Source: a bacterium (GTDB lineage Bacteria; UBA10199; 2-02-FULL-44-16; JAAZCA01). Taken from it: a DNA stretch of 64,000 bases. Below the pieces are notes generated by a model, which made no database searches, was not told where the DNA came from, and saw only the letters and a program-made list of their open reading frames with translations. The stretch is from assembly GCA_963674695.2 (NCBI GenBank), contig CAXXGI010000003.1:1013064-1077063 (forward strand), read 5' to 3'. A program made the position numbers and the translations under genes. Below, in pieces: positions 1,129 to 56,932 of this stretch; the stretch's first letter is position 1, and every line of letters starts with the position of its first letter.

Positions 1129-1375
1129 CCTTACTCCCCATCGATGCACGCGATGATCCGTCATGAGACCAACTCCTTGCAGACGTTATGCGACGATTAC
1201 AGTCCGTCGCTCATGACATACTATCGTCACCGACACAATAAAGTTGCTCTGTTTTTATGAATAATATCACAGTGTTAGGCTAACATGGCGACCGTGACGA
1301 AATGTCACAACGCAATCATCACGGCACGCATTCCCATTGCAAAGTGAACGAGTTGCACATAGAGGACATCCCCTC

Positions 1376-4219
1376 ATGCGACACGATGCCATCGTCATCC
1401 GCGGCGCGCGGATGCATAACCTCAAAGATATCGACGTCACGATCCCGAAGAACAAACTCGTGGTCGTGACGGGGCTGTCCGGCTCGGGCAAATCCTCGCT
1501 CGCCTTCGACACGGTCTATGCGGAGGGACAGCGGCGCTATGTCGAATCGCTCTCGGCGTATGCGCGTCAATTCCTCATGCAGATGGACAAGCCCGACGTC
1601 GACTCGATCGAGGGTTTGAGCCCCGCCATCTCCATCGAGCAGCGAACCGCGAGCCGCAATCCGCGCTCGACGGTCGGCACCTCGACCGAAATTTGGGATT
1701 ACCTGCGCCTGCTCTTCGCACGCGCAGGACAGGTGCACTGCCCGGGCTGTGGACGGCTCATCGCCGGACAGAGCGCGTCACAGATCGTCGATCAGGTCAT
1801 GGGGGATATCCCCGAGGGCAGCCGCATCACCGTGCTGGCCCCGGTCATCTCGGGTCGCAAGGGCGAACACGTCAAGGAATTGAAACGCCTGACGCGCGAG
1901 GGCTTCGTGCGCGCACGTATCGACGGCGCCATCGTCGAACTGGCATCTCCTCCCGCGCTGGACAAGAAGCGCAAACACGACATCGACCTGATCGTCGACC
2001 GTCTCGTCGTCAAACCCAGCGCGCGCCAGCGACTGGCCGACTCAATCGAAACCGCCCTGAAATTCGGGGATGGAATGGTGAAGATCACCACGGGTCACGA
2101 CAACGAGTTGCTCTTCTCGGAGAAAAACGCCTGCGCCTATTGCCACATCAGCATGCCGGAGGTCACCCCGCAGCTCTTCAGCTTCAACTCGCCCAAGGGG
2201 GCCTGCCCCGACTGCGATGGCTTAGGCATGCGGCGCTACTTCGACGCAGACCTGATTATCCCCAATCATCACCTCTCGCTGCGCGAAGGCGCGATCGCGC
2301 CCTGGCAGAAGAAATCACCGACGGCGATGGTGGAGCTCTTTCAGGCGCTGGCCAAACACTATTCCTTCGACATCCGCACGCCATTTGGAGAACTGCCACA
2401 GCGCGCGCGCGAAGTCATCCTGCACGGATCCGGAAGCGAATCGATTCGATTCTCCTATGACAGCGGCGATGAACGGCGCCAGATCTATAAGCAAGCGTTC
2501 GAAGGAGTCATCCCTTTCCTCGAACGACGTCTTCGGGAGACGAGTTCCGATTACATCCGGTGGGATATCGAACGCTACATGAACATGCGTCCCTGCCCCA
2601 CCTGCATGGGCACGCGGCTGAAACCCGAGAGCCTCTGCGTCCTCGTGGGTGGCAAGACCATCGCTGAGATCGCCGCGCTGCCCATCTGCGATTGCGAGCG
2701 ATTCTTCGCAACCCTCAAGATGACCCGAAAGGAACGGGCGATCGCCAAGCGCCTGCTCAAGGAGATCCGCGAACGCCTCTCCTTTCTCGCCAAGGTGGGG
2801 CTCGACTACCTCACGCTCGATCGCGCCAGCGGCACGCTCGCCGGCGGCGAAGACCAACGCATACGGCTGGCCACCCAGATCGGTTCGGCACTCACCGGCG
2901 TGCTCTATGTCCTCGACGAGCCCTCCATCGGGCTGCACCAGCGCGACAACGATCGGCTGCTCGAAACGCTCATGCGCCTGCGCGACCTGGGCAATACGGT
3001 GCTCGTGGTCGAACACGACCGCGACACCATGCTCGCAGCCGACCATATCATCGACCTCGGTCCCGGCGCCGGTATTCACGGAGGCAAGATCGTCGCCTGC
3101 GGCACGCCGGATGAGATCATGGCGGATCCCAACTCCATCACGGGACAGCACCTCTCGGGAAAGCGTTCGATCGAAACGCCGACACATCGCCGCACGCTGG
3201 GAACCGAATGGCTCACCATCGAAGGCGCGACCGAACACAACCTGAAAAACATCGATGTCGCCTTTCCCCTCGGGTGTTTCATCGCCATCACGGGGGTATC
3301 CGGTTCCGGAAAATCGACGCTCGTGAGCGACACGCTGCTGGCCGGACTCAAGCAACGCCTGCTCAAATCGAAGATCCAGGCCGGCGCTATGCGCGACATG
3401 AAGGGGTTCGATCGCATCCGCAAGGTGATCGACATCGATCAGAACCCGATCGGGCGCACGCCGCGCTCGAACCCTGCCACCTATACGGGAATCTTCACGC
3501 CGATTCGCCAGCTCTTCGCCGAGCTTCCTGAATCGCGCGCGCGCGGCTACAAGCCGGGACGGTTCTCCTTCAACGTGAAAGGCGGTCGGTGTGAAGCCTG
3601 CGAAGGCGATGGCATCATCAAGATCGAGATGCACTTTCTGCCCGACGTCTACGTCGAGTGCGAAGTCTGTGAGGGAAAACGCTTCAACCGCGAGACCCTC
3701 GACATTCACTATAAAGGCGCCTCGATCTCCGATGTGCTCCACATGACGATCAATCAGGCACACCGCTTCTTCGAAAACGTCCCCGCCGTTGCCAACAAAC
3801 TCGAGACGCTCATTGAGGTGGGGCTGGGCTATATCGAGTTGGGACAGGCGGCCACCACCCTCTCGGGCGGTGAAGCGCAACGCATCAAGTTGTCACGCGA
3901 GCTCTCCCGCCGCCCGGCGATCCCCGTCGAAGAGGGGGGCAGCGGACGCACGCTCTATATCCTGGATGAACCGACCACGGGCCTGCACTTCGAGGATATT
4001 CAAAAACTGCTCGACGTCCTCGACCGCCTGGTCGACGCGGGCAACACCGTGATCGTCATCGAGCACAACCTCGATGTCATCAAACACGCCGACCACTGCA
4101 TCGACCTCGGTCCCGAGGGGGGCGCGGCCGGCGGCGAAATCGTCGCCATCGGAACGCCCGAGGAGCTGGCCCGGCACAAGACATCCTTCACCGGAAAATA
4201 TCTGAAGGATGTGTTGTAG
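1376..4219 (+). CDS. uvrA: Excinuclease ABC subunit A
   Basis: 947 aa. Two ABC ATPase modules ([41 protein letters not shown] signatures), Zn-finger Cys pairs, and the start [17 protein letters not shown] typical of UvrA. ATG 1376 with AGAGGA upstream is preferred over the TTG at 1337 in the ORF track. Confidence 0.97.
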
Positions 4220-5618: not shown

Positions 5619-6491
5619 ATGCGCCTTCTTTCGATTGTCATTTGCATCATCACCCTCGCGCTGAGCGCACCCGCATTTGCGCAGGGCGTGCAGATCTTTC
5701 AACGCCAAACCACCATCGGTGGCCACCAAGCGGCCCTGCTCATCGTCGGCTGGCAGAAGGACGCTGCCGCCGTCCAGAAGCTCTTCGACCTGGTCGTGCA
5801 ACAGGGCGCCGCATCATATGCGCGCCTGGACTGGCGCAATCCCGCCAGCGAAGTGGCCCGCATCAACGCAGCCGCAGGCACGGATGCGATACGCGTTTCT
5901 AAGGACGTGCGCGCGGCGTTCGAAGCGGCGGAAAAAGTTTCAAGTTGGACCAAGGGCGCATTTGACATCGTCTCCGGCGGCAGTTGGAAAGACCTGAAGG
6001 TAGGCGGCAGCGTGAAGCTCAAGCGCGCCGGCGCACAGGTTCGATTCGATCCGATCATCGAAGGATTTTTGGCCGACCTGATGCTCACGCTCATCTACAA
6101 TTCCAACATGCAAAATGCGATGGTGAAGGTCGGAAACATCTTTCGCGGAACCGGGCAAAGCATTCGGGGCCCGTGGAAGATTCAGGTTCAGGACGATGAG
6201 GGAACTTTTGCGCGCCATGCCATCAACCTGATCGTGCGCAACACGGGGGTCGCCACCGTGAGCGCCAGCCAGTTTCGCGCCCAAGGGCTCATCGATCCCA
6301 GGTCGGGAAGACCCATCGCCCCGCCCTGCAAGGGCGTGGTCGTGGTCAGCACCAGCGCGGCGCTCGCCCAGGGTTTGGCCCGCGGCATCTTCGTCCTCGG
6401 GCCACAAAAAGGTATGGAGCTTCTCAAAAGCCACGCCCGCGGCATGATCGTCGATAACGCCGGCAAGTTCCTCCGCTCACCTGGGTTTTAA
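5619..6491 (+). CDS. Secreted ApbE-like protein, second divergent paralogue
   Basis: ATG 5619 lies 4 nt after the upstream stop. The signal peptide is MRLLSIVICIITLALSAPAFAQG. Blocks seen: GAFDIVSGG, FDPIIEGFLADL, GLIDPRSGRP. The 48-aa N-terminal extension in the ORF track overlaps the upstream gene and is not credible. Confidence 0.6.
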   Translation: MRLLSIVICIITLALSAPAFAQGVQIFQRQTTIGGHQAALLIVGWQKDAAAVQKLFDLVVQQGAASYARLDWRNPASEVARINAAAGTDAIRVSKDVRAAFEAAEKVSSWTKGAFDIVSGGSWKDLKVGGSVKLKRAGAQVRFDPIIEGFLADLMLTLIYNSNMQNAMVKVGNIFRGTGQSIRGPWKIQVQDDEGTFARHAINLIVRNTGVATVSASQFRAQGLIDPRSGRPIAPPCKGVVVVSTSAALAQGLARGIFVLGPQKGMELLKSHARGMIVDNAGKFLRSPGF

Positions 6492-6502
6492 TGCCGTACG
6501 TT

Positions 6503-6616
6503 GGTTCGTCGGTTCGATAGTTCGACGGTTCGTCGGTTACGGCAGTTCAACTACATGTTATAGCGATCAAGATCGATCGAACCATCGAACCATCGAACCA
6601 TCGAACCATCGAACCA
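6503..6616. repeat. Inverted 8-nt word arrays: (GGTTCGNN)x5 ... (CGAACCAT)x5
   Basis: 6503-6541 reads ggttcgtc ggttcgat agttcgac ggttcgtc. 6578-6616 carries 5 tandem cgaaccat units ending 2 nt before the ATG of the next gene. The two blocks are reverse complements. Confidence 0.9.
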
Positions 6617-6618
6617 AC

Positions 6619-7173
6619 ATGAACAATTACCACACGCTCTTGAATAAAGTAGACCACTTCGTCGCTGAGATCCGTGCACGGCATCCGGAATCGTTCGTGT
6701 GCGCACCCGGATGTGCCGAGTGTTGTGTAGCGGGCATCACCGTCTGGCGCATCGAGTTCGAGTCTGTGCGTCTCGCGTCTCGCGATGCGCGTCTGACGAA
6801 AGCCCCTCCTTCCCGCTGCCCCCTCCTCGACTCCGATGGTCGCTGCACCATCTATGACGCGCGTCCCATCGTCTGCCGCCTCTGGGGCGCGCCGCTCCTC
6901 TTCCCCTCCGACATCGACCGGAACGACAACACGTCGCTGCACCATGCAAACGAAACCCGCCTCGATTCGGATGATGCCACACTCACCTGCTGCCGCCTCA
7001 ACTTCACCGAACCGCCGACGCTCGCCCAACTGCTCCCCTCCGACCTCATCAACGTCGAGACGGTGCTCACGACACTGGCGGCGATCAACCACGTCTACTG
7101 TCGGAAAAAGGGATTCGATCCGAACGAACGCCTCGCGCTGAACGCCCTCGATGCAGCTCCATTCCCATCCTGA
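6619..7173 (+). CDS. YkgJ-family (UPF0153) cysteine-cluster protein
   Basis: CAPGCAECC...CPLLDSDGRCTIYDARPIVCRLW matches the CxxCxxCC / C-x-I-Y-x-x-RP-x-x-CR signature of the YkgJ Zn/Fe-chelating family. Confidence 0.8.
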   Translation: MNNYHTLLNKVDHFVAEIRARHPESFVCAPGCAECCVAGITVWRIEFESVRLASRDARLTKAPPSRCPLLDSDGRCTIYDARPIVCRLWGAPLLFPSDIDRNDNTSLHHANETRLDSDDATLTCCRLNFTEPPTLAQLLPSDLINVETVLTTLAAINHVYCRKKGFDPNERLALNALDAAPFPS

Positions 7174-22407: not shown

Positions 22408-24090
22408 ATGAAACACATCATTATAACACTCATCGGCATCCTCTTTCTTGCCAGCGCAACTCCGGGATTGGCCCAGGTAGCATCTTCAGCACAACTCCAG
22501 GCGCCACCCTTGAACGAGGCACGCATGGACATTCCGAGCCTGATCGACGGTGGCTTCTTCGTCAGCGCGATTCCGGTCGATATCTGCGTCGTTTCGGCGA
22601 CCACGAGCATCGTCACGCCGGCAGCGCCTAAAGCGGCCATCGCTTCACAGAGACCAACCCCGCAGCGTGCCTGTCTCCACCGCTATGCAGCGGGCATCCC
22701 ACTAGGACTCCTCTTCGATGACAACAAGAGCTTTGCTTTTGTCACACCCGCCTCGCTCGACATCGGCATCTGGGGAGCGCCTCAATCCGGACGAGAAAGC
22801 GATGCGACGACTGGCGGGAGCTACGGCGCTGATGGCGACCTCGAACGCCTGCCTGATATCATGATAACGGACGGCGTCAGCCTCAGCGCTGATGATCCTG
22901 CCGACACGACGGAACACGACGAGGAGATCGCGCTGACCATCGAAGCGATCGATCGGGACAACATTCTCGTCAACGGACAGTACTTCATCCGGACGGATGC
23001 CAACATCGATGTGAGCGATGTCGCCCGCAGCGAACTGTATGAGACGCTTCTGGGAAACGCCGATCCCTTCAACGCTGACCTGGGAGGAATCTTCGAAGCC
23101 CTCGTCTCCGAAAGTGATATCGGCATCGTCTTCAGCGAGATCGCCTTCCGTGCCTTCGACCTCGATCGCCTCCTGCTCGACCAGTTCTTCACGCGCTGGG
23201 CGATGCACGCTCGCGACTTTGGCGAATTCACTGCGGGCGATTTCGAGGGAATGTTCGGTTCCTGGCGCGGCAACGGCGGCTGGGGCATGTGGAACAGCTT
23301 CGACGACATCTTCGGCGCCGGCGGTGAAGGATTTGGGAACAGCGGCGCGGGCATGGACGGCATCGGCCGCACGCACGGCGGCTTCGGCGGCATGGGCGGA
23401 AATGGAAACGGCATGGGCTGGATGGACGACTTTGGCGCCGGCGGGAGCGCCTTCGGCCAGGGTGGCGGCTTTGCCGGCAATGCCGGCTGGATGGGCGGCG
23501 GGATGCAAAATGGCCTCGGCAACATGGGCAACTTCGGCGGCGCGAGCTGGTTCAATCGCGGCAACCCGAATGGGGGCAGACCTGCGGGATATGGGCAAGA
23601 CATGAATCGAGGAGACATGAAGGGCAAGGGCAAGGGCACGGATATCGATCTCTGCTATATTGATGAGAATGGAAAGTTTCACTCTAATAACGGCAATGTG
23701 AAAAGCGTTCAGCCAACCAAATGGGACAATAAAGGTTACATGCCGAAGCCAAAAACCAAAACAAACGCAGACGATATTCAACTGCATGAAGCTGAAGACA
23801 ACAACGATCTGCCTAAACGTGTTACCCCGTACAATCCGGCAGGCATAGGCGATAAAGTCGATGATAGCGGTCCCGGCCTCCCCTTCGCGCGAACGGATGC
23901 GACGCCCTACGAGGATGGCGGTGAAGAAGGCCCCGGCCATATCTTCACAACGGACGAGGCGACACCGTATGAGGATGGCGGAGAGGAAGGCCCCGGCCAC
24001 GTCTTCACAACGGACGAGGCGACACCGTATGAGGATGGTGGAGAGGAAGGCCCTGGCCACGTCTTCATCACCGATGAAACAGCAAACTGA
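22408..24090 (+). CDS. Secreted hypothetical protein with Gly/Met/Asn/Phe-rich low-complexity core and C-terminal 20-aa repeats
   Basis: GAGGAG RBS. The signal peptide is MKHIIITLIGILFLASATPGLAQ. About 140 aa have G/M/N/F-rich composition (GGFGGMGGNGNGMGWMDDFGAGG...). The C-terminus has 3x TDEATPYEDGGEEGPGHVFT. Confidence 0.75.
   Translation: MKHIIITLIGILFLASATPGLAQVASSAQLQAPPLNEARMDIPSLIDGGFFVSAIPVDICVVSATTSIVTPAAPKAAIASQRPTPQRACLHRYAAGIPLGLLFDDNKSFAFVTPASLDIGIWGAPQSGRESDATTGGSYGADGDLERLPDIMITDGVSLSADDPADTTEHDEEIALTIEAIDRDNILVNGQYFIRTDANIDVSDVARSELYETLLGNADPFNADLGGIFEALVSESDIGIVFSEIAFRAFDLDRLLLDQFFTRWAMHARDFGEFTAGDFEGMFGSWRGNGGWGMWNSFDDIFGAGGEGFGNSGAGMDGIGRTHGGFGGMGGNGNGMGWMDDFGAGGSAFGQGGGFAGNAGWMGGGMQNGLGNMGNFGGASWFNRGNPNGGRPAGYGQDMNRGDMKGKGKGTDIDLCYIDENGKFHSNNGNVKSVQPTKWDNKGYMPKPKTKTNADDIQLHEAEDNNDLPKRVTPYNPAGIGDKVDDSGPGLPFARTDATPYEDGGEEGPGHIFTTDEATPYEDGGEEGPGHVFTTDEATPYEDGGEEGPGHVFITDETAN
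23893..24069 (+). repeat. Three tandem 57-60-nt coding repeats
   Basis: The units are 23893-23949, 23950-24009 and 24010-24069. They are nearly identical at the DNA level, and units 2 and 3 differ only at a few third positions. Confidence 0.9.
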
Positions 24091-31844: not shown

Positions 31845-31944
31845 CCGTGACTCGTAATTCGTGACTCGTAACTGGCAACTCGAAAACCATAACCCGTGAC
31901 CCGGAAAACCTGAAATTGATTCCCTCATTACGAGTTACGAGTTA
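31845..31944. repeat. Inverted (GTGACTCG/GTAACTCG) word blocks in the rnfC-rnfD spacer
   Basis: The left block is ccgtgactcgtaattcgtgactcgtaactggcaactcg. The right block is ttacgagttacgagttacg, which is its reverse complement and includes the rnfC stop. Confidence 0.85.
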
Positions 31945-33283: not shown

Positions 33284-33366
33284 TTCGTGAACCGTAAACC
33301 GTGAACCGTGAACAGTAAGCAAAATCGTGTTAATCTTCACCGTTCACCGTTCACCGTTTTCACCGG
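33284..33366. repeat. Inverted (GTGAACCG)/(CACCGTTC) word blocks in the rnfB-rnfC spacer
   Basis: The sequence is ttcgtgaaccgtaaaccgtgaaccgtgaacagtaa ... cttcaccgttcaccgttcaccgttttcaccgg. The right block encodes the last residues of RnfB (PVKTVNGER). Confidence 0.85.
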
Positions 33367-34173: not shown

Positions 34174-34261
34174 CGTAACTCGTAACTCGTGACTCGTAAC
34201 TCGTAACTCGTAACTCGTGACTCGTAACTCGTGACTCGTGACTCGTGACTCGTAACTCGTA
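34174..34261. repeat. 11 tandem 8-nt units (CGTAACTC / GTGACTC)
   Basis: 88 nt of alternating gtaactc/gtgactc words lie immediately upstream of the rnfB start. Confidence 0.92.
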
Positions 34262-34275
34262 AAACCGAAGATCGT

Positions 34276-36953: not shown

Positions 36954-36987
36954 CCGTGACTCGTGACTCGTGACTCGTGACTCGTAA
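36954..36987. repeat. (GTGACTCG)x4 word array upstream of apbE
   Basis: The sequence is ccgtgactcgtgactcgtgactcgtgactcgtaag, starting 16 nt upstream of the apbE ATG. Confidence 0.9.
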
Positions 36988-37496: not shown

Positions 37497-37531
37497 GTTC
37501 GATGGTTCGATAGTTCGTCGGTTCGATGGTT
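37497..37531. repeat. (GTTCGATG)-type word array after hypA
   Basis: The sequence is gttcgatggttcgatagttcgtcggttcgatggtt, beginning 5 nt after the hypA stop. Confidence 0.85.
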
Positions 37532-37541
37532 TTCGTACCGT

Positions 37542-37741
37542 ATCGCTGCGCACGGGGAGGGGGTGTGTGCATGGCGACGTTATGACCGGAGCCGTATGAC
37601 GAACAAAAAGAGCGACTGGGTTCGCGAATTGCGAGCCGAAAACGAAGGATCCGCAATTCGCGTTTTTGAACCCAGCGCTCTTTTCGTGAGGAATAGGCGG
37701 AGGGAAGGCGCAGCACACACCCCCTCCCCGTGCGCAGCGAT
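37542..37741. mobile_element. 200-bp MITE-like / structured element with perfect 29-bp terminal inverted repeats
   Basis: ATCGCTGCGCACGGGGAGGGGGTGTGTGC (37542-37570) pairs with GCACACACCCCCTCCCCGTGCGCAGCGAT (37713-37741). An inner imperfect palindrome is AAAAGAGCGACTGGGTTCGCGAATTGCG / CGCAATTCGCGTTTTTGAACCCAGCGCTCTTTT. CCGT is found on both outer flanks. There is no coding capacity. Confidence 0.6.
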
Positions 37742-37891
37742 GCCGTGCAGGGCGTGCAAGCGGAGCGGACGCGCACAGATGAGGCCTGCCAACCGCTTGA
37801 ATCTCTTGCTGATCTCCAACTCTTCCGCGGTAATTCACCAGCCGAGGAACACCTTGACAGATGCCGTGTTCGGCCCGTAGAGTCGCGCCCC

Positions 37892-40267
37892 ATGAGCATT
37901 TGCGGCCGAAACCAGATTGTTGTCACGGGCACCGTCCAGGGGGTCGGGTTTCGTCCGTTTATCGCGCGGACCGCAACGACACTTGGGCTCGCAGGCTTTG
38001 TGACCAACACCCCTGAGGGCGTGCAGATCGAGGTTCAGGGGCCACCTGAACGGCTGGAGGCATTCCTCGAAGCGCTGCGCCAATCGCCGCCGCCGCTGGC
38101 GCGCATCCAATCGATCGAGAGCAAATCGATTGCGATCCTCGACGAAGCGAGTTTCGTCATCGCCCCCAGCCGATCCGGAGCGGGGACCACCACGATGATC
38201 TCGCCCGACATTGCCCCGTGCGCCGCCTGTGCCGCCGAACTGCTCGACCCGCAGGATCGACGCCATCGCTACCCCTTCATCAACTGCACCGATTGCGGCC
38301 CGCGCTATTCCATCATCCAGGGCCTGCCCTATGACCGCCCGCAGACGACCATGAAGCCCTTTGCGATGTGCGAGGCCTGCGCGACCGAATATGCCGACCC
38401 GACCGATCGTCGGTTTCACGCGCAGCCGGATGCGTGTGAGACGTGTGGACCGAAGATCTCCTTCGTGGTCTCGCAAGATCGTGGTCTCGTGGTCTCGCAC
38501 GACCCCCTTCATGATACCATCGCAGCGCTCGACGAAGGAGCGATCGTTGCGATCAAGGGGGTGGGCGGTTTTCACCTGGCCTGTGATGCACAGAGCGATG
38601 CGGCTGTATGCGAACTGCGTCGCCGCAAACGGCGGGATGAGAAGCCCTTCGCCCTGATGGTGAAAGACCTCGATGCCGCACGCGCCATTTGTCACGTCGA
38701 TGAAACCGAGGCGCAACTGCTGACATCGCCCGAGCGACCGATTGTCCTGCTGCGCAAACGCGACGCCATCCCGGTCGCGCAATCGGTCGCGCCCGGCAAC
38801 CAGAGACTCGGCGTCATGCTTCCCTCCTCCCCCCTGCATCACCTGCTTTTTCACGGGTCACGAGTTACGAGTTACGAGTCACGGATTTTCGTCATGACCA
38901 GCGCCAACATCTCCGATGAGCCGATCGTTCACACCAACGATGAGGCGTGCAGCAAACTGGCCGACATCGCCGATGCGTTTCTCATGCACGACCGCGACAT
39001 CCACGTCCGCATCGACGATTCGATCGCGCGCACGATGAATGGCCGTGCCCTCCTGATGCGTCGCGCACGCGGGTTCGTCCCCGCGCCCATACGGATGAAA
39101 CGCCCGATGCCGCCGATCCTCGCCACCGGCGCCGATCTCAAGGGGGCCATCTGCGTCACGCGCGGCCACAACGCGATCCTCTCGCAACACCTGGGCGACC
39201 TACAAAACGCCGAGGCCCATCGCGGATTCGAAGAAACGGTGGAGCACCTCACCACGCTCTTCGCGGTCCGTCCGGAGATCATCGCCTGCGACCTGCACCC
39301 CGATTATTTCAGCACCCGCTTCGCTGAAACGATCTCACGCTCTCTCGATCTTACGAAACCACGAGACCACGAGACCACGATCTCACGAGTACAACACCAC
39401 CACGCCCATATCGCCAGCTGCATGGCGGAGAACGATCTGCCCAACGAACCGGTCATCGGAATCGCGCTCGATGGCACCGGTTTTGGCACCGATGGCACCA
39501 TCTGGGGGGGCGAGCTGCTCATCGCCGACTACGAGGGGTTCACCCGCGCAGCGCGTTTCAAACCCGTGCCGATGCCGGGCGGCGATGCCGCTGCACGCGA
39601 ACCCTGGCGCATGGCGCTGGCGTACCTTCGGACCACGGACCATGGACCATGGACCAAAAACCAAAACCTCTTCCCATCGGTTCCGCGGGAGAAGATCGAC
39701 CTCGTTCGACAGGTGCTCGAGAAACGCATCAACTGCCCGATGACGTCGAGCTGCGGACGACTTTTCGATGCGATAGCCGCGCTCATCGGCCTGCGCACCG
39801 TGAACACGTTCGAGGGACAGGCCGCCATGGAGCTGGAACAAATTGCCGCGGATCATTGTGATGAAGCATACCCGTATACGATTGAGACACGAGACTCGAG
39901 ACACGAGACTCGAGACCACCCCCCTCTTCAGATAGGCTTTGAGAGAATGATCGAGCAGATCGTCAATGACGCGGTCGCAGGCATATCGCCATCGATCATC
40001 AGCGCCCGCTTCCACAACACCCTCATCGAGACCATCTCCGACGCTTGTCGCCGTATCCGTTCACGGTTCACGGTTCACGGTTCACGAGTGTGCCTCTCCG
40101 GCGGCTGTTTTCAAAACGCGTGCCTTGCGGAGGGACTCAAGAAAAAGCTTGTGGATCAAGGATTTACCGTCTATACGCATGCGCTCGTTCCGCCCAATGA
40201 CGGCGGCATCGCCCTGGGCCAGACCATCGTCGCGGCCCACCGGGCAGAGAGGCAGCAACGACCATGA
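37892..40267 (+). CDS. hypF: Carbamoyltransferase HypF
   Basis: Acylphosphatase domain (VTGTVQGVGFRPF), four CxxC Zn-finger pairs, YrdC-like block (IVAIKGVGGFHLACDA), and Kae1-like block (VQHHHAH, LSGGCFQN). ATG at 37892. It contains six repeat-word insertions (see findings). Confidence 0.95.
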   Translation: MSICGRNQIVVTGTVQGVGFRPFIARTATTLGLAGFVTNTPEGVQIEVQGPPERLEAFLEALRQSPPPLARIQSIESKSIAILDEASFVIAPSRSGAGTTTMISPDIAPCAACAAELLDPQDRRHRYPFINCTDCGPRYSIIQGLPYDRPQTTMKPFAMCEACATEYADPTDRRFHAQPDACETCGPKISFVVSQDRGLVVSHDPLHDTIAALDEGAIVAIKGVGGFHLACDAQSDAAVCELRRRKRRDEKPFALMVKDLDAARAICHVDETEAQLLTSPERPIVLLRKRDAIPVAQSVAPGNQRLGVMLPSSPLHHLLFHGSRVTSYESRIFVMTSANISDEPIVHTNDEACSKLADIADAFLMHDRDIHVRIDDSIARTMNGRALLMRRARGFVPAPIRMKRPMPPILATGADLKGAICVTRGHNAILSQHLGDLQNAEAHRGFEETVEHLTTLFAVRPEIIACDLHPDYFSTRFAETISRSLDLTKPRDHETTISRVQHHHAHIASCMAENDLPNEPVIGIALDGTGFGTDGTIWGGELLIADYEGFTRAARFKPVPMPGGDAAAREPWRMALAYLRTTDHGPWTKNQNLFPSVPREKIDLVRQVLEKRINCPMTSSCGRLFDAIAALIGLRTVNTFEGQAAMELEQIAADHCDEAYPYTIETRDSRHETRDHPPLQIGFERMIEQIVNDAVAGISPSIISARFHNTLIETISDACRRIRSRFTVHGSRVCLSGGCFQNACLAEGLKKKLVDQGFTVYTHALVPPNDGGIALGQTIVAAHRAERQQRP

Positions 40268-40983: not shown

Positions 40984-40987
40984 ACAG

Positions 40988-41048
40988 TTCACGGTTCACA
41001 GTTCACGGTTCACGGTTCACAGTTCACGGTTCACAGTTCACGGTTCAC
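40988..41048. repeat. (TTCACGGT/TTCACAGT) 8-nt word array, about 7.5 units, in the hypC-hypD spacer
   Basis: The sequence is ttcacggttcacagttcacggttcacggttcacagttcacggttcacagttcacggttcac, ending 2 nt before the hypD ATG. The ORF-track N-terminus of hypD (FTVHSSRFTVHSSRFTVHGS) is its translation. Confidence 0.9.
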
Positions 41049-42379: not shown

Positions 42380-42613
42380 ATGATTATGGGTAGATCTCTC
42401 GCACATCTCATACGGTCTCATCGGAAAAAGAGCGGTCTCACACAAGCCCAACTCGCAACGATGGCCGGGGTCGGCAAGACCGTCGTCTTTGATGTCGAAC
42501 ATGGCAAGAAGACGATCATATTCGCGACGATTCAGAAGATGCTCAAGGTCCTCAACATTCACCTCATCGCCCAGAGCCCGCTCGAGGGAAACGTCACCAT
42601 TGAGGAGATCTGA
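42380..42613 (+). CDS. hipB: XRE-family HTH protein, HipB-like
   Basis: LRSHRKKSGLTQAQLATMAGVGKTVVFDVEHGK is a Cro/C1-type HTH. It is 77 aa and the first gene of a three-gene module. Confidence 0.85.
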   Translation: MIMGRSLAHLIRSHRKKSGLTQAQLATMAGVGKTVVFDVEHGKKTIIFATIQKMLKVLNIHLIAQSPLEGNVTIEEI

Positions 42614-42614
42614 C

Positions 42615-42923
42615 ATGAAAAAGGCTGCCATTTTCTTTCAGGCAATCAGAGCGGGGACGTTGGAGCAACGCGACGACGGTTCATGTCGCTTCTCCTACGA
42701 ACCGTCGTATGAAGGCCAACCGATCTCACTGACGATGCCAACAGCACAGGCCCACTACGACTTCGACGCCTTCCCCCCCTTCTTCGAAGGCCTCCTCCCC
42801 GAGGGAATACAACTCGAGGCCCTGCTCAAACAACGGAAGATCGATCGCAACGACCCCTTCTCCCAGCTCGTCGCGGTAGGCGCAGATCTCGTGGGAGCTG
42901 TCACGGTCGAGGAGATCGCATGA
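42615..42923 (+). CDS. hipS: HipS-like protein (stand-alone HipA N-terminal subdomain)
   Basis: GAGGAG RBS, 102 aa. It aligns with the first ~105 aa of E. coli HipA (..FFEGLLPEG.., ..LVAVGADLVGAVTV.. vs ..FFDNLLPDS.., ..LSEIGRDSVGAVTL..). Confidence 0.8.
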   Translation: MKKAAIFFQAIRAGTLEQRDDGSCRFSYEPSYEGQPISLTMPTAQAHYDFDAFPPFFEGLLPEGIQLEALLKQRKIDRNDPFSQLVAVGADLVGAVTVEEIA

Positions 42924-43849
42924 GACGCTGTCCGATCACCTATGAACAGATTGCGGAAGACGAGCGCTACTCGAGCGCAGGGCTGAAGCAGCTCTCGCGC
43001 ACCCTCACCGACATCGCCCCCCTCCCCTTTACCGAAGCGGAACAGATTCACGAAGCGATGGCGCGCGCCGACAAGATGTCGATCCAGGGCGTGCAGCCGA
43101 AGCTCAGCGCCGTCCTTCGCGTCAAGGAGGGTCGTTTCGACATCGTCGACCGTGGCGGAACCTACATCCTCAAGCCACAGATTCGATATCCCGAAGTTCC
43201 GGAGAACGAAGCGATAACGATGACGCTCGCGGCATCGCTCGGCATTGACGTCCCTGTGCACGGCCTCGTCGAAGGTCGTGACAAGCATTGGACCTACTTC
43301 ATCAAACGCTTCGATCGTCTGGGGAAGGGACGCAAGCTCCCCGTCGAAGATTTCGCACAGCTGGCCGGAGCGACGCGCGAAACGAAATATCGCAGCTCGA
43401 TGGAACAGGTCGCCAGGATCGTCGAAACCCATTGCACCTTCCCCATGATCGAGCTCCGCAAGCTCTTTGTACGCACGCTCTTCAATTTCCTCACCGGCAA
43501 CGAGGATATGCACCTCAAGAACTTCTCCCTCATCACGCGCGATGGAAAGGTGGAACTCACCCCCGCCTACGACTTCCTCAATTCGACAATCGCGCTTCCG
43601 AATCCGATGGAAGAGCTCGCACTTCCCCTCAAAGGAAAAAAGGCGAGGCTCACGCGTAAGTACCTCATCGCATACTACGGTGAAGAACGACTGGAGTTGA
43701 ACAAGAAGGTCATCGGTGATGTCCTGGGGAACATACAGCGAGTCATTCCATTCTGGAGAGAACTCATCGACAGGAGCTTTCTCTCGGCGAAAATGAAGGA
43801 GCGGTATACGATGGTATTGGACAGGCGTCTCAAAACACTTGGGCTGTGA
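42920..43849 (+). CDS. hipT: HipT-like Ser/Thr kinase toxin (HipA core kinase lacking the N-terminal subdomain)
   Basis: The start overlaps the hipS stop. It has the Gly-rich loop MSIQGVQPKLS, the FIKRFDR block, and the catalytic motif GNEDMHLKNFS (HipA: GATDGHAKNFS), followed by LTPAYDF. Length is 309 aa. Confidence 0.85.
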   Translation: MRRCPITYEQIAEDERYSSAGLKQLSRTLTDIAPLPFTEAEQIHEAMARADKMSIQGVQPKLSAVLRVKEGRFDIVDRGGTYILKPQIRYPEVPENEAITMTLAASLGIDVPVHGLVEGRDKHWTYFIKRFDRLGKGRKLPVEDFAQLAGATRETKYRSSMEQVARIVETHCTFPMIELRKLFVRTLFNFLTGNEDMHLKNFSLITRDGKVELTPAYDFLNSTIALPNPMEELALPLKGKKARLTRKYLIAYYGEERLELNKKVIGDVLGNIQRVIPFWRELIDRSFLSAKMKERYTMVLDRRLKTLGL

Positions 43850-43852
43850 TTA

Positions 43853-45544
43853 TCACTCGATATCCGACGGCGGTTTCACGCCGGTGCAGGCCTCGGCGCT
43901 CCCCCCCTCCAGGAAGCACTTCACGACACCTCTCAACTCAGGTCCGGCGTAGCTCCACAAACCCGGCTTCTCGAAAAGCTGCGCAAACCACTCGATGGGA
44001 GTTTCTCCGACATCCGAAAAATCGGTCCAGAGAGGATATCTGACCCATTGCAGGGAACCTTCGACACAAGCATTCATTCGATGCGCGCGCTCACCATTCA
44101 AGGTAAATCTCCAAAAAGCTCCCTTGATCGGGTTTTGACACATCTCTGACAGCAATCCAATTCTGAAAGACGTCAGGCTATTTCGATCCCCATGGACAAG
44201 GAAGTCGTCGATGCTATGGCCGAGTTCATGCCGCGCAACCTTATACTGAAGCTCCAGCGTAGGAAGCACTCCTGTGCCAAAGCGATTCGCAAAGGGATTA
44301 TAGACCGCCGCTGCCTTGCACGGATAGCCAAAAAGGGATTCCATAAGAGAGGCGATATCATCCGAAGCAAGCGTCGGAGGACGCTCGGTTTCTGGATCGA
44401 TGCCGATAAATGTAAGTCCTCGTTCATCACCCTCGCCCTGGGCCCAGCGACGGACCATATGCGGCCCGAACGAGCGCATCGCCTCGCCGATCGCGAAGAG
44501 GCGTTTGGCGAAAGCATTCGGACCACCCTGGAGAATCACCGCTTCTTCGCCGAGCTCCGCCGGGAGCGCAATCTCGAAGAGATGTCCGTTCACCGAGATA
44601 CGTCCGTTTTTCGGATCAACTTTCGTCAATTGATCGATCACCGGCTTCAGCTGACGCCGTTCATCCTCCGTCAGCGCACCGGAGCGGTGAAAGAGCGCAA
44701 AGGCATGCCATGCCTCTTCGACCGAGGAGAGACGATCATCGTCCTCAACATCGAGACGCGCTCGCAAATCGGGCGACATCGGCTGCGGAAACGCGACACT
44801 CCGATAAAAGGGAAGAGGTGCCTCCGGATACTCGGAGATGGGATCGAATTCGACCCGAACCAACGCGTTTCGAGTAGAGTCAATAACGTTCTCGGCATTG
44901 ATTTTCAGCAACGTCGAGAACCTTTCCGGCGATTGACGAAAGAGTTCAATCGCACTTGTTTCTATGATAAACTCTCGTTGGTCGAAGTTGATCTCCACAG
45001 TACTCGTCGACCAAAGCAGCTGCAAGCCGTACCGGCGAATAAGATCCTCCATCATCCACCGCACCTCCGGCGTCTCGAACGTCAGATGGTCGGCCATGTC
45101 TGATTGCACCTTCATTCGCTCGCAGACATCGAGACTCGAACACTCCATCTCCAGATGTGCAATGTCACCTTCCATTTCGCGAATATCGAAATCGACATTC
45201 CACTTTCCATTCCGTGCCCAACGAATAACATGAATGGACTCCACCGGTTGATGCAAGAGCAACTCAAGGCGTTCCTCTATCGATGCGCGATAGGTGTCGA
45301 CGAGCTCTTCATCGTTGCCACAGGCGCGCCGTTCAAGCTTCGCGCCCGCCTCGGTGACCACCCCTGAACAATGCGCGGGACCGGCCTCGCCGCGATCGAA
45401 ACTCACGTCGATCTGCCGCTCACCGCTCTCGTCTTGCCGTTCGGAATAGCGATAGATATCCTCACAGACGAGATTCTCCGGAGGCGAAGCACTGCCCTTC
45501 TGTTTTTCCAGAACGGTCCCCATCGCACACTCCTTCTCCTTCAT
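43853..45544 (-). CDS. Orphan cytoplasmic protein with C-terminal HExxH (HELGH) motif
   Basis: 563 aa from ATG 45544 (GGAG 6 nt upstream). An ATG at 45523 and a TTG at 45604 are also possible. It has no signal peptide or TM helix. The only recognisable motif is VARHELGHSIDDF. GC looks lower than in flanking genes. The overlapping plus-strand ORF 44192-45103 is Arg-rich shadow. Confidence 0.7.
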   Translation of the reverse strand: MKEKECAMGTVLEKQKGSASPPENLVCEDIYRYSERQDESGERQIDVSFDRGEAGPAHCSGVVTEAGAKLERRACGNDEELVDTYRASIEERLELLLHQPVESIHVIRWARNGKWNVDFDIREMEGDIAHLEMECSSLDVCERMKVQSDMADHLTFETPEVRWMMEDLIRRYGLQLLWSTSTVEINFDQREFIIETSAIELFRQSPERFSTLLKINAENVIDSTRNALVRVEFDPISEYPEAPLPFYRSVAFPQPMSPDLRARLDVEDDDRLSSVEEAWHAFALFHRSGALTEDERRQLKPVIDQLTKVDPKNGRISVNGHLFEIALPAELGEEAVILQGGPNAFAKRLFAIGEAMRSFGPHMVRRWAQGEGDERGLTFIGIDPETERPPTLASDDIASLMESLFGYPCKAAAVYNPFANRFGTGVLPTLELQYKVARHELGHSIDDFLVHGDRNSLTSFRIGLLSEMCQNPIKGAFWRFTLNGERAHRMNACVEGSLQWVRYPLWTDFSDVGETPIEWFAQLFEKPGLWSYAGPELRGVVKCFLEGGSAEACTGVKPPSDIE

Positions 45545-45647
45545 TATCGTCTCCACGATGGGGAGAAGTTGCCGACATATGTAGATTGTCGCTGCCAAGG
45601 GCAATTTTTCAGTGCGAACAGGGCGTCATTCTGATAGGGCAACCGCC

Positions 45648-48281: not shown

Positions 48282-48307
48282 TTCGATGGTTCGTCAGTTC
48301 GATGGTT
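48273..48307. repeat. (GTTCGATG)x4 word block
   Basis: The sequence is gttcgatagttcgatggttcgtcagttcgatggtt. It is the reverse complement of the array at 48349-48472. Confidence 0.9.
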
Positions 48308-48348
48308 TTATGGAACTTGACTTTTGTCGTGCAGAGTTGATCCTTCGT

Positions 48349-48472
48349 AACCATCGAACCATCGAACCATCGAACCATCGAACCATCGAACCATCGAACC
48401 ATCGAACCATCGAACCATCGAACCATCGAACCATCGAACCATCGAACCATCGAACCATCGAACCATCGAACC
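48349..48472. repeat. Perfect tandem array, 15.5 x AACCATCG (8-nt unit)
   Basis: 124 nt with no interruption. It ends directly at the GGAGG RBS of lemA (ATG 48483). Confidence 0.97.
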
Positions 48473-48482
48473 GGAGGAACAC

Positions 48483-49121
48483 ATGAAAAAAACACTCATC
48501 GTCATCGGTATCATCGTCTTTATCATCCTGGCCATCGGCTCGAGCTTCGCGGGCAAATACAACGGGCTCGTCTCGCTGCGCGAAAACGTCACCACCTCCT
48601 GGGCACAGGTCGAGAACGTCCTGCAGCGGCGTAACGACCTGATCCCGAACCTCGTGAACACCGTCAAGGGGTATGCGGCGCACGAGCAGAAGGTCTTCAT
48701 CGACGTCACCAAGGCGCGTGCGCGCGTTGGCGGAGCCACCACGATCCCGGAGAAGGTCGCGGCGAACAACCAGCTCACCGCTGCCCTGGGGCGACTGCTC
48801 GTCGTCTCGGAGCGCTATCCGGAGCTCAAGGCCAATCAGAACTTCCTGGCCCTGCAGGACGAACTGGCCGGGACGGAGAACCGCATCGCGGTGGAGCGCC
48901 GCCGCTATAACGAAGCGGTGCGCGCCTACAACACCTCGGTGCAGGTCTTCCCCACCAACGTCATCGCCGGCATCTTTGGGTTTGAGCGCCAGAGCGTCTA
49001 CTTCAAGGCGGATGAAGCGGCAAAGACCGCACCCAAGGTCGATTTCAACACGGCACCGCCTCCGACCCAGCCCGCCCCCGAACAGCCGGCCGCGGCACCG
49101 GCCGCACCACCTGCGGAATAA
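48483..49121 (+). CDS. lemA: LemA family protein
   Basis: N-terminal TM helix, then YNGLVSLRENVTTSWAQVENVLQRRNDLIPNLV and ELKANQNF..LQDEL, which are canonical LemA blocks. Confidence 0.92.
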   Translation: MKKTLIVIGIIVFIILAIGSSFAGKYNGLVSLRENVTTSWAQVENVLQRRNDLIPNLVNTVKGYAAHEQKVFIDVTKARARVGGATTIPEKVAANNQLTAALGRLLVVSERYPELKANQNFLALQDELAGTENRIAVERRRYNEAVRAYNTSVQVFPTNVIAGIFGFERQSVYFKADEAAKTAPKVDFNTAPPPTQPAPEQPAAAPAAPPAE

Positions 49122-49125
49122 ATAC

Positions 49126-49156
49126 AAAAGCCGGGGCGCATCGCCCCGGCTTTTTC
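49126..49156. terminator. Bidirectional rho-independent terminator
   Basis: AAAAGCCGGGGCG-CAT-CGCCCCGGCTTTTT, between convergent genes. Confidence 0.85.
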
Positions 49157-49175
49157 GCATTCATCTCTTCATCCC

Positions 49176-53268: not shown

Positions 53269-53286
53269 GGTATGGCTCGTTGTTCG

Positions 53287-54261
53287 TTATTCGTTATTCG
53301 TTGATCGTTGTTCGAGGATCGAAACCAGTGCCGGCACGACGGCGAAGAGATCGCCCACGATGCCGAAGTCGGCCTTCGAAAAGATCGGCGCCTCCGGATC
53401 GCTGTTGATGGCGACGACGGTCTTGGCCGAACGAATGCCCGCGATATGCTGAATGGAACCGGAGATGCCGCAGGCGATGTAGAGCTTGGGCGCGACGACA
53501 CGCCCGGTCTGGCCGACCTGATGGTCGTGTGAAATCGAACCCGCGTCGACCGCCGCCCGCGAAGCACCGACCTGTGCGCCGATGGCCTCGGCCAAACCTG
53601 CCAGGAGACCAAACCCCTCCACGCTCCCGACCGGCCGCCCGCCGGCGACGATGCGATCGGCCTCCGCCAGATCCTGAAGCCCCGCCTCGGTTTCGATCAC
53701 CTCGGCGACGCTCGCACGCGTTTCCCGGGGTGCCGTCTCGATGCGATCCACCGTACACAGGCTCCCGGTCGTCTCGGGCACGGGAAAGGCATTCGGGCGA
53801 AATGTCGCCACGATCGGCGTGCCGGTGAGCGCAAACGACACGACGACGTTTCCGCCATACTGCGACCTCCGACCGGAAAACCCCTCCTCGGTGAACGCTC
53901 CATCGAGACAGGCGGTCGCCATCCCCGTATCGAGACAGGCGGCCAGGCGCGCCAAGGCATCGTGTCCCAACGGCGTCTCGGTGGCGACGATCGCATCTAC
54001 GGACAATCGACCGACGAGTTCGGCGACGAAGGGTGCGGCCGTCTCGCCCGTGAGGCGATCGGGATCGGCAGCAACCGCAACGAAGGCACGATCCACGCCA
54101 ACCCCGCCCAGCTGCGCCGCACACCCCTCGGCATCGCCGAAGAGGAGGGCTGTCACCTCACCGTCGACTCCCGCAAACGCCCGCGCCTTCCCCGCCAACT
54201 CCAACGAGGCACGCTTGAGCGTTCCCCCTTCATGCTCTGCGATGAGAAGAATTTTTTTCAT
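53287..54261 (-). CDS. etfA: Electron transfer flavoprotein subunit alpha
   Basis: ATG 54261 (MKKILLIAEH). The C-terminal FAD-binding block is LYIACGISGSIQHIAGI..AINSDPEAPIF. The last residues (EQRSTNNE) are encoded by a ttcgttat-type repeat. Confidence 0.93.
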   Translation of the reverse strand: MKKILLIAEHEGGTLKRASLELAGKARAFAGVDGEVTALLFGDAEGCAAQLGGVGVDRAFVAVAADPDRLTGETAAPFVAELVGRLSVDAIVATETPLGHDALARLAACLDTGMATACLDGAFTEEGFSGRRSQYGGNVVVSFALTGTPIVATFRPNAFPVPETTGSLCTVDRIETAPRETRASVAEVIETEAGLQDLAEADRIVAGGRPVGSVEGFGLLAGLAEAIGAQVGASRAAVDAGSISHDHQVGQTGRVVAPKLYIACGISGSIQHIAGIRSAKTVVAINSDPEAPIFSKADFGIVGDLFAVVPALVSILEQRSTNNE

Positions 54262-54392
54262 ACCTTCCTTCAGGAGGCGCCTCGAGCACATGCGCCGCGA
54301 GGGGACAAACGGAGCTATTTTTACAGGTTCACGTGAAAAATGGTTTCGTTTTTCCCCGGGAGGCGCCCTGGCACTTGCGCCATCAGGGGGAC

Positions 54393-55179: not shown

Positions 55180-55365
55180 GCCAGTCAAGCCAGTCAAGCT
55201 AGTCAAGCTAGTCAAGCTAGTCAAGCTAGACAGGTTAAAACATGCCTGACTGACCTGACTAGCCTGACTGGCTTGATTCGCCTGACTGGCCTGACTGGCC
55301 TGACTGGCTTGTCTCGCCTGACTGGCCTGACCGCCTGACCGCCTGACTGGCCGTGACTGGCCTGC
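55180..55365. repeat. Two opposed 9-nt tandem arrays: (C[CT]AGTCAAG)x5-6 and (GCCTGACTG)x~13
   Basis: The left array is 55180-55231 and the right array is 55244-55365. The units are imperfect reverse complements (AGTCAAG vs CTTGACT/CCTGACT). Together they fill the whole ahcY-etfB spacer. Confidence 0.92.
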
Positions 55366-56773: not shown

Positions 56774-56932
56774 GTTCTGACCTCCACAGCAGCAAGGCGC
56801 CTTCGCTTTCGCGCGCACCTCCGGTTGCGTTGACATAGAATACCCCTTCCGTTTGAGTGAGCGGCAGCTATACCGCATTGGATCGCTATTTCAAGCCTTT
56901 TCCTTCGTCTCTGGTCCATGGTCCATGGTCTA

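Follow-up and report, generated by a model that had tools for sequence, protein, structure and literature searches.

Tandem arrays of 7- and 8-nt units in six loops of the carbamoyltransferase HypF and related arrays in the spacers of the same genome

The hypF gene of a bacterium that appears, by the placement of its UvrA, to belong to an uncultured lineage contains six short tandem arrays of 7- or 8-nt units, which are read in frame and lie in loops of the encoded carbamoyltransferase HypF. The gene was studied in a stretch of 64,000 nt (contig CAXXGI010000003.1 of assembly GCA_963674695.2, positions 1,013,064 to 1,077,063), referred to below as the window. Arrays at the same loops occur in related HypF proteins, with units that differ from genome to genome, and the units found in hypF also build arrays in the spacers of the window. 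The hypF sites are probably in-frame long-unit simple sequence repeats (SSRs) from a genome-wide population of arrays, shaped by slippage and by conversion between arrays and filtered by frame, stop-free strand and tolerant loops.

Arrays were detected using Tandem Repeats Finder (TRF) and by our own analysis of matches at lags 7 and 8, and the two were in agreement. At all six sites, TRF reports a period of 7 or 8, with 2.4–4.7 copies and 88–100% matches (Table 1). A preliminary description of this DNA had listed six repeat strings inside hypF together with the encoded peptides; all are present at the positions given, and a TRF array was found at each. Its count of three units per site (21 or 24 nt) does not hold, as the unit numbers are those above and the array lengths are not necessarily multiples of three. 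At site 3, for which 31 nt had been given, the array is present but its 8-nt periodicity spans ~61 nt.

Codon shuffling of hypF (n = 2000) yielded no run of ≥12 bases matching perfectly at lag 7 or lag 8, as compared with three (lag 7) and one (lag 8) in the real gene. For the shuffled coding sequences (CDSs) of the window (57 kb) 0 arrays are expected, and 19 were observed (13 at lag 7 and 6 at lag 8). The arrays are thus more frequent than composition predicts, and an origin by chance or composition is ruled out. An assembly artefact is likewise ruled out, since independent assemblies (NCBI, ENA, Logan, JGI) agree and have intact open reading frames (ORFs).

The sense strand of every hypF array is stop-free. 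Because a 7- or 8-nt unit runs through all three frames, only the strand matters for stop content. The same words had been said to be stop-rich when read otherwise; this is correct for the antisense strand of sites 2 and 6, which has stops in all three frames, and for that of the GATCTCAC unit of site 3, but at sites 1, 4 and 5, and for the main unit of site 3, neither strand contains stops.

All five HypF Pfam domains (Acylphosphatase, zf-HYPF, Sua5_yciO_yrdC, HypF_C and HypF_C_2) are present in the window protein, which has the architecture acylphosphatase, two HypF zinc fingers, YrdC-like domain and Kae1-like domain. It matches the solved Caldanaerobacter HypF (PDB 3VTH, E = 2e-202). In the AlphaFold2 model (25 homologues), for which the mean predicted local distance difference test (pLDDT) score is 83.7, all six sites lie between secondary-structure elements. 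Site 1 occupies the loop that links the Zn-finger region to the YrdC-like domain, and the loop of site 5 is flanked by strands 663–666 and 679–682. Local dips in pLDDT were seen at most sites, to <50 at site 2 (residues 323–327) and to ~63–78 at sites 3, 4 and 5 (63 for the block of residues 581–590 at site 4). Gaps in the alignments with 3VTH and 4G9I coincide with all six sites. Model and alignments together show the arrays as confined to predicted variable surface loops, at the indel-prone points of the solved HypF structures. The suggestion that arrays survive only in tolerated loops is thus supported by low-pLDDT loops and alignment gaps, and also by the use of the same loops in unrelated HypFs described below.

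Loop lengths were measured between conserved anchors in 164 HypFs, and the medians in Table 1 are those of array-less HypFs outside the clade that comprises the window protein and its relatives. The loops of sites 2, 3 and 5 exceed those of array-less HypFs by 5, 10 and 9 amino acids (aa), respectively; the net gain at site 6 is ~2 aa only. Judged by these lengths, sites 1, 4 and 6 are not net insertions, and the array there appears to replace loop residues that are present in every HypF. The arrays had been taken for insertions, with homologous residues at the same positions of unrelated orthologues named as what would speak against this. Sites 2, 3 and 5 are indeed longer, whereas at half of the sites (1, 4 and 6) such residues were found. 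The claim that the reading frame is kept stands, and in some cases orthologues differ in loop length by three units. Thus, the site 2 loop is 7 aa longer in the window than in P0010, which is equal to three heptamers, P0010 keeping about one unit. The 27-aa loop of site 3 compares with 19 aa as usual in the clade, and the difference of 8 aa is equal to three octamers.

HypF relatives from the protein database share 66% (P0002), 61% (P0003) and 52–58% (P0004–P0014) identity with the window protein, and the DNA of eight relatives was compared. Scans of genomic and metagenomic contig collections for close relatives gave 50–53% identity at best, and overall no relative above 66% aa identity was found. 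The protein alignment of the relatives shows heptamer-like peptides at the same places, such as SRVTGHGSR and NHESRIT, the latter being (AATCACG)x3. Arrays of ~4 units are present in the same loops at sites 2, 3 and 6 of P0002 and at sites 1, 2 and 3 of P0003. All six loops have arrays in P0007, five or six in P0004, sites 2–5 in P0011, sites 2–4 in L090 and site 2 in P0008. All seven of these relatives have a site 2 array at the orthologous place.

The units differ among genomes, both at site 2 (AGTCACG, GGTCACG, GGTCACC, ATTCACG, AGTCCCG) and at site 6 (GTTCACG, AATCACG, GGTCCCG, AGTCTCG). Site 3 of relatives holds heptamer arrays (AATCACG, ATTCACG, CTCTCCA, AGCGACA), and the site 5 loop has arrays in P0004 (GACCCGA), P0007 (GGGACCA), L009, L017 and L040. 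In most clade members the 3' boundary and the phase are the same, TCN-CGN (Ser-Arg) being followed by VCLSGG at site 6, where the next codons are GTN/ATT-TGY, or by (I/V)(F/L)VMTS at site 2.

In a neighbour-joining tree of the 164 HypFs, the window protein and its relatives form one clade, and array-less L083 (= P0010) and L088/L089 (= P0014) are nested inside it. Site 6 of array-less P0010 and P0014 has 14/21 and 13/21 lag-7 matches, respectively, which is the 99.8–99.9th percentile of their own CDS, in a loop of the same length. Since nested array-less branches keep this remnant, the arrays date from the clade ancestor and can decay to ordinary loop codons. The array of site 1 also seems to be old and partly decayed: when read by eye in 8-nt register, P0003 and P0002 have in the orthologous segment what seem to be related octamer arrays, likewise decayed in part. 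On this comparison, arrays at these loops are traced to the common ancestor of the HypF clade, down to about 52–53% identity. The units have since changed lineage by lineage, with sites 2 and 6 keeping their 3' boundary and codon phase and site 6 also, roughly, its loop length. The earlier view of the arrays as insertions new to this genome is not supported, as orthologues at about 53–66% identity carry arrays in the same loops and array-less relatives retain decayed remnants. All examined clade HypF ORFs are intact, and no switched-off alleles are among them.

Outside the clade, arrays were found inside hypF at 20 of 153 HypF loci, mostly from Anaerolineae and other Chloroflexota, which are distant in the tree. 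These arrays are clearly restricted to few HypF loops. Of their total of 37, 23 lie ≤3 aa from the six loops, which make up 14% of the protein (binomial p = 3e-11, a value inflated by phylogenetic non-independence), and 12 lie in a seventh loop corresponding to window residues 380–389. The seventh loop (window ~39029–39058) is the linker between the YrdC-like and Kae1-like domains and is arrayless in the window; the Anaerolineae HypFs with arrays in it are L009, L017, L018, L019, L030, L034, L040, L053, L120 and L155. At 14 array-rich loci, partly picked for having arrays, hypF has 1.28 arrays/kb, as against 0.03/kb for other long ORFs and 1.84/kb for the remaining sequence.

HypF is the only gene of the window with internal 7–9-nt arrays, but it is not the sole gene hit in the clade. 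UvrA of relatives carries inserts of the SRVTGHG-, SRVPGPE- and GSGIGDRGSG- types at one loop; hence, the colonisation of loops by arrays is clade-wide and extends beyond HypF. The UvrA inserts (7–34 aa) follow the position of residue ~241 of the window UvrA (1337–4219) in P0126, P0129, P0138, P0141, P0143, P0144, P0148 and P0156, and their peptides (SHGSRVTGHE, TSHESRVTSHD, NPESRVPGPE and GSGTGDQGSGIGDRGSG) are translations of heptamer arrays. The window's own UvrA has no insert at that loop. The nearest named relatives of the latter (~63–71% identity) are metagenome-assembled genomes labelled Pseudomonadota, Proteobacteria or Deltaproteobacteria, and Desulfuromonadales such as Geoalkalibacter.

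Evidence for copying comes from comparison of arrays belonging to one genome. In the window clade, array pairs with ≤1 mismatch in the unit amount to 25% within a genome versus 12% between genomes (permutation p = 0.0014). In L085, site 6 and the array at the end of hypC have in common an exact stretch of 22 nt including a variant unit (TCCCGGGTCTCGGGTCCCGGGT), and in L086, site 1 and the hypC-end array have one of 27 nt, also exact and including a variant unit (TACGAACGTACCAACGTACGAACGTAC). The window has two such pairs in inverted orientation: site 1 matches site 3 over 28 nt at 93% (22 nt exact), and site 2 matches the apbE leader array over 44 nt at 89% (18 nt exact). The latter match includes the non-repeat 3' flank GATTTTCG, which within hypF encodes conserved Ile-Phe-Val. 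The hypC-hypD leader array and site 6 show a 20-nt exact match. The array directly 5' of hypD is orthologous in the window, L085 and L086, where it is built of GTTCAC(G/A), GGTCCCG and TACGAACG units, respectively, each of which matches a hypF array of its own genome.

Independent evolution of each array would not yield common stretches with variant units; these few pairs thus suggest that short patches are copied from one array to another, through ectopic conversion or template switching. The preliminary description had proposed a process that seeds repeats into coding DNA. Copying between loci is backed by the variant-unit order common to arrays of one genome, but the hypF arrays are not new hits in this genome. 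As a separate observation, the tails of HypC are array-encoded both in L085 (ESRIPGLGSRVS followed by the stop; array 6083–6116) and in L086 (YERTNVRTYEIA followed by the stop; array 3144–3173).

The window has ~21 arrays of 7–9-nt units at a TRF score ≥40, and outside hypF all of them lie in spacers or overlap gene ends. Copy numbers in the TRF table range from 2.4 to 15.5. As had been reported, intergenic words recur in hypF. The AGTCACG/AGTTACG (site 2) and GTTCACG (site 6) units build seven further arrays, all within 31.8–42.2 kb, GTGAGATC-type spacer arrays are built of relatives of the site 1 and site 3 octamers, and the site 4 unit GGACCAT recurs as a spacer array at 56912–56930, TGGTCCA being likewise among the words that build spacer arrays.

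Most spacer arrays stop 2–16 nt 5' of a start codon (rnfD, presumed rnfC, rnfB, apbE, hypD, the gene at 6619 and lemA). By eye, no obvious Shine-Dalgarno sequence is present in front of rnfD, rnfB, hypD, the 6619 gene and presumed rnfC, whose distances from array to ATG are 8, 6, 2, 2 and 12 nt, respectively; among the seven leader arrays, only those of apbE and lemA are separated from the ATG by a GGAGG Shine-Dalgarno sequence, also as judged by eye. Leader arrays may stand in for the Shine-Dalgarno sequence. The assignment of the ATGATG behind the array at 33286–33313 as the rnfC start is presumed from gene order. Other spacer arrays overlap stop codons: hypD terminates within a CGTGACT array, and the final codons of an electron transfer flavoprotein (ETF) subunit gene (53287–54291) overlap a TCGTTGT array (53277–53314). 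Inspection of the flanks of 28 arrays revealed no common termini across unit families and no target-site duplications; the AGTCACG family alone has a common 3' motif, GATTTT (or GACTTTT). Assignment to miniature inverted-repeat transposable elements (MITEs) or small dispersed repeats was rejected on these grounds and in view of the range of copy numbers. An Rfam search of the window at the gathering threshold gave one tRNA only and no family match for the arrays.

Table 1. The hypF gene, its six arrays and spacer arrays of the window. Loop lengths are given as window/median; TRF, Tandem Repeats Finder.
Feature	Position	Strand	Units	TRF array	Product or context	Loop length (aa)
hypF (carbamoyltransferase HypF)	37892–40267	+	hosts six arrays		791 aa	
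Site 1	38465–38502	+	~5 octamer units, GTGGTCTC / GCAAGATC	38479–97 (8 nt x2.4)	VVSQDRGLVVSHD (aa 192–204)	30/29
Site 2	38852–38884	+	(AGTCACG/AGTTACG) x ~4	38860–83 (7 nt x3.4)	GSRVTSYESR (aa 321–331), adjoins VMTSAN strand	14/9
Site 3	39329–39389	+	~7.6 octamer units, ACGAGACC / ACGATCTC types	39353–80 (8 nt x3.5)	loop before VQHHHAH (aa ~480–499)	27/17
Site 4	39629–39656	+	(CGGACCA) x4.0	39629–56 (7 nt x4.0)	RTTDHGPWTK (aa 580–589)	38/39
Site 5	39884–39916	+	(GAGACAC/GAGACTC) x4.7, alternatively 14 nt x2.4	39884–916 (7 nt x4.7)	ETRDSRHETRD (aa 665–675)	57/48
Site 6	40057–40086	+	perfect (GTTCACG) x4.3	40059–86 (7 nt x4.0)	IRSRFTVHGSR (aa 722–732), adjoins VCLSGG	26/24
hypC-hypD leader array	40987–41048	+	(GTTCACG/GTTCACA) x8.9		ends 2 nt 5' of hypD ATG; site 6 unit	
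apbE leader array	36955–36985	-	(AGTCACG) x4.4		then GATTTTCGGAGGAATC-ATG of apbE	
Array over hypD stop codon	42125–42158	.	(CGTGACT) x4.9		reverse complement of site 2 unit	
Octamer array directly 3' of hypA	37497–37531	+	(GTTCGATG) x4.4			
rnfB leader array	34174–34262	-	(AGTTACG/AGTCACG) x12.7		then GATTTT-ATG; site 2 unit family	
Array 5' of presumed rnfC start	33286–33313	-	(GTTCACG) x4.0		12 nt before ATGATG; site 6 unit	
rnfD leader array	31846–31882	-	(AGTTACG/AGTCACG) x5.3		then GACTTTT-ATG	
Leader array of gene at 6619 (CxxCxxCC-domain gene)	6576–6616					
lemA leader array	48349–48472		(AACCATCG) x15.5		lemA starts 48483 on plus strand	

Several further features of the window were recorded. 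The genes around hypF are arranged in the order rnf operon, apbE, hypA, hypF, an ORF of unknown function, hypC, hypD, a hipA-like pair and then hypE. The hipA-like pair (Couple_hipA + HipA_C, two adjacent ORFs) and a 583-aa ORF with no Pfam match, at 42489–45604 between hypD and hypE, break the hypCDE order found in L082, L083, L084 and L086. The spacer between hypA and hypF contains a near-perfect 219-nt hairpin (37532–37750), with outer arms at 37537–37570 and 37713–37746 (34 nt, 94% complementary) and nested inner arms. Its minimum free energy is -139 kcal/mol (z = -14.6 versus shuffles), and the arm sequence is unique within the window. The hairpin, which could be a MITE-like element, a terminator/attenuator or a structured RNA, explains the unusually long gap of 400 nt 5' of hypF.

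The ORF at 48294–49160 (minus strand, 289 aa), which reads the 15-unit (AACCATCG) array as (RWFDGSMV)n, looks like a spurious antisense frame: it has no Pfam match, is rich in R, G and L, and lies opposite lemA. Two adjacent 9-nt arrays, the sole ones of this period in the window, precede an ETF beta-like gene, at 55183–55229 ((AGTCAAGCT) x5.2) and 55244–55364 ((GCCTGACTG) x13.6), and the units of the two show partial complementarity. A 60-nt tandem repeat (x2.8, 91% identity; 23899–24067) inside the ORF 22408–24090 is in frame, with 20 aa per unit, and is unrelated to the 7–9-nt arrays.

The hypF arrays belong to a known, poorly understood class, and their closest precedent is the four-heptamer elements of Geobacter metallireducens. 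These elements, Gmet_H4, consist of four tandem heptamers (GGGACCG / GGACCGG) at 49 sites (Aklujkar et al. 2009, PMC2700814, Table S4, Fig. S2). Both spacers and genes contain them, a single gene up to three times (cobQ x3, sucB x3, cbiD x2); they are regionally clustered and were interpreted as regulatory RNA elements (PMC2700814). In the same way, hypF has six arrays of about four heptamer-type units with the same units in spacers, and the two taxa are related, as the named relatives closest to the window UvrA are Desulfuromonadales/Deltaproteobacteria. However, one unit family is found there as compared with many here, and the consensus is different: only GGACCA(C/T) of site 4 resembles GGACCGG, the other sites having GTTCACG, AGTCACG, GAGACAC or octamers. 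That work reports nothing on orthologous persistence, unit turnover or location in loops (PMC2700814).

In marine Beggiatoaceae (Gammaproteobacteria) and some cyanobacteria, TAACTGA direct repeats stand just 5' of start codons, usually with no Shine-Dalgarno sequence (MacGregor 2015, PMC4679880). Inside ORFs they occur in the stop-free orientation only and mostly at tolerated positions, mostly protein termini (PMC4679880). The leader architecture is shared by the spacer arrays of the window but is not applicable to those inside hypF, which are comparable in another respect, all being on the stop-free sense strand, with antisense stops in three frames at sites 2 and 6. In contrast to the single TAACTGA unit, of which the TRF table of the window has no arrays, many units are used here, and the ORF-internal copies lie in six internal loops of one conserved enzyme rather than at termini.

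Among the long-unit SSRs (5–11 nt) of prokaryotes, heptanucleotides are commonest, and polymerase slippage has been proposed as their origin (Mrazek and co-workers, summarised in PMC4679880 and PMC4692102). In Xanthomonas and Nostoc, four is the preferred unit number of GGGAATC repeats (PMC4692102), and long-unit SSRs in coding regions are expected to have multiple-of-three units (PMC4679880, PMC4692102). The window arrays conform to this class, as they are composed of head-to-tail units in the 5–11-nt range above compositional expectation, with tandem 7-nt units, a mostly non-coding location and a modal copy number near four. They differ in that 7- and 8-nt units lie in frame inside a conserved enzyme. 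A G-quadruplex as the reason for four units was rejected, since the units here are not G-rich. The statement in the preliminary description that no mechanism is known does not hold: heptanucleotide long-unit SSRs and polymerase slippage have been described (PMC4679880, PMC4692102), and within-gene arrays of ~4 heptamers, several per gene, are known in G. metallireducens (PMC2700814, Table S4). As far as found, three features are absent from those papers, namely arrays persisting at orthologous protein loops during unit turnover, evidence of copying between coding and leader arrays, and the use of the same HypF loops in two distant lineages.

Two further kinds of repeat may be compared. Phase-variable contingency loci are SSRs in coding regions of host-adapted pathogens. 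The hypF arrays resemble them in having a non-multiple-of-three unit inside a CDS, so that a one-unit change would shift the frame, but have low copy numbers, number six per gene, are in frame in all alleles seen and belong to environmental bacteria, with no ON/OFF variants observed. Cyanobacteria reportedly have heptamer families of short tandemly repeated repetitive (STRR) sequences, and small dispersed repeats that are said to insert in frame into genes. The reuse of heptamer array families at many loci and the tolerance of very small repeats in conserved proteins would be common to both cases; the phylum and the units are different, and small dispersed repeats are, by the same account, discrete mobile units of 21–27 nt, not tandem arrays.

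According to the explanation favoured here, slipped-strand mispairing would take place inside an array, and within a CDS only steps of three units (7 or 8 codons) would keep the frame. Genome-specific units and variant-unit orders would spread among loci as short patches are copied between arrays (ectopic conversion or template switching). Selection would leave arrays only if they are in frame, on a stop-free strand and in loops tolerating any sequence. In lineages that lack arrays, the sequence has decayed to ordinary loop codons. Selection for frame, strand and loop tolerance would also lead to the independent colonisation of the same six or seven HypF loops in Anaerolineae.

A number of points weigh against this explanation. 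As the closest relative found has 66% aa identity, the support for slippage is indirect and consists of the differences of 7 or 8 aa between orthologues. About four units of 7 nt are a poor substrate for slippage, and a three-unit contraction would leave one unit, which is unable to re-expand in this way. Copy number peaks near four also in spacers, which are free of the frame constraint, and this is not predicted by simple slippage. Since three sites show no net change in length, expansions would need balancing deletions, or else copying overwrote the loop. The evidence for inter-locus copying comprises a handful of array pairs. Finally, the enrichment of arrays in hypF (1.28 versus 0.03/kb) exceeds that expected from tolerance alone, although it is partly affected by the choice of loci.

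A more far-reaching reading is active copying that moves short blocks of 7–8-nt units between arrays, in the clade and independently in Anaerolineae, and repeatedly overwrites fixed permissive loops at constant length, possibly by a dedicated mechanism. This is regarded as unlikely. If true, the loop peptides of HypF (six or seven loops) and UvrA (one loop) would be continually re-invented from translation-leader sequences, with concerted evolution between coding loops and intergenic leaders.

A lower probability is given to ongoing seeding that drops pre-formed blocks of spacer repeat into CDSs, the six hypF arrays then being recent, genome-specific loop insertions of 21 or 24 nt. The units common to hypF and nearby intergenic arrays, the inverted copies with matching variant order or flank, and the extra 5, 10 and 9 aa at sites 2, 3 and 5 would agree with this. 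So would the limitation of the TCACG-core family to 31.8–42.2 kb, suggesting local spread, and the array size near four units even in spacers, like that in G. metallireducens and Xanthomonas. Recent events are, however, contradicted by orthologues of about 53–66% identity with arrays in the same loops, by the common boundary and phase of sites 2 and 6 and by decayed remnants. Moreover, sites 1, 4 and 6 are not net insertions, the unit count is not exactly three, and neither target duplications nor termini common to the array families were found.

Equally improbable is that the arrays are functional cis-elements whose copies are kept perfect by selection, serving as leader or initiation elements, as sites for a repeat-binding factor, in long-range RNA pairing within the hyp operon or as a phase-variation switch of hypF. 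Most spacer arrays stand 2–16 nt before start codons, mostly with no obvious Shine-Dalgarno sequence, as TAACTGA repeats do in Beggiatoaceae. Complementarity exists between site 2 and the arrays that border the hypA-hypD stretch on either side, as well as between sites 1 and 3, some arrays are perfect despite an old site (sites 6 and 4; site 3 of L081), and a one-unit change would switch hypF off, as the unit is not a multiple of three. On the other hand, a single genome has many unrelated units (in the window GTTCACG, AGTCACG, GGACCAT, GAGACAC, GTGGTCTC, AACCATCG and 9-mers), unlike what is expected of one specific binding factor, and arrays decay in some lineages while the gene stays. The examined clade HypF ORFs, all intact, include no switched-off alleles, four copies imply low switching rates, and no Rfam family was matched.

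A dedicated enzyme system that writes or homogenises repeats, rewriting arrays at fixed loci with genome-specific units, is considered very improbable. It would explain why units are genome-specific and common across loci, yet different at orthologous sites, why loops are overwritten with no change in length, and why arrays of some four heptamers turn up again in distant phyla. No candidate enzyme was found among the part of the window ORFs scanned, the phenomenon is phylogenetically scattered with no known shared system, and slippage with ectopic conversion can produce all observations. Selection of periodic peptides (e.g. SRxTxHxSR) at the protein level, or an assembly or compositional artefact, can hardly be entertained, because, in spite of similar loop peptides in orthologues, unit identity is at the nucleotide level and read in three frames, codon shuffles give no arrays and the independent assemblies show intact ORFs.

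A conserved enzyme can thus harbour, for a long time, arrays whose unit length is no multiple of three, the same few loops being re-colonised in unrelated bacteria, and the repeat units turn over in concert with the spacer arrays of the same genome. For annotation, caution is required, as peptides such as SRVTGHGSR in HypF, UvrA and HypC tails are repeat-derived and not functional motifs, and spurious ORFs or N-terminal extensions arise from stop-free arrays, as for rnfB, rnfD and hypD. The hypF arrays provide a testable system for the origin and spread of bacterial heptamer repeats, for the way in which loops gain sequence, and for identifying the loops that are free of constraint.

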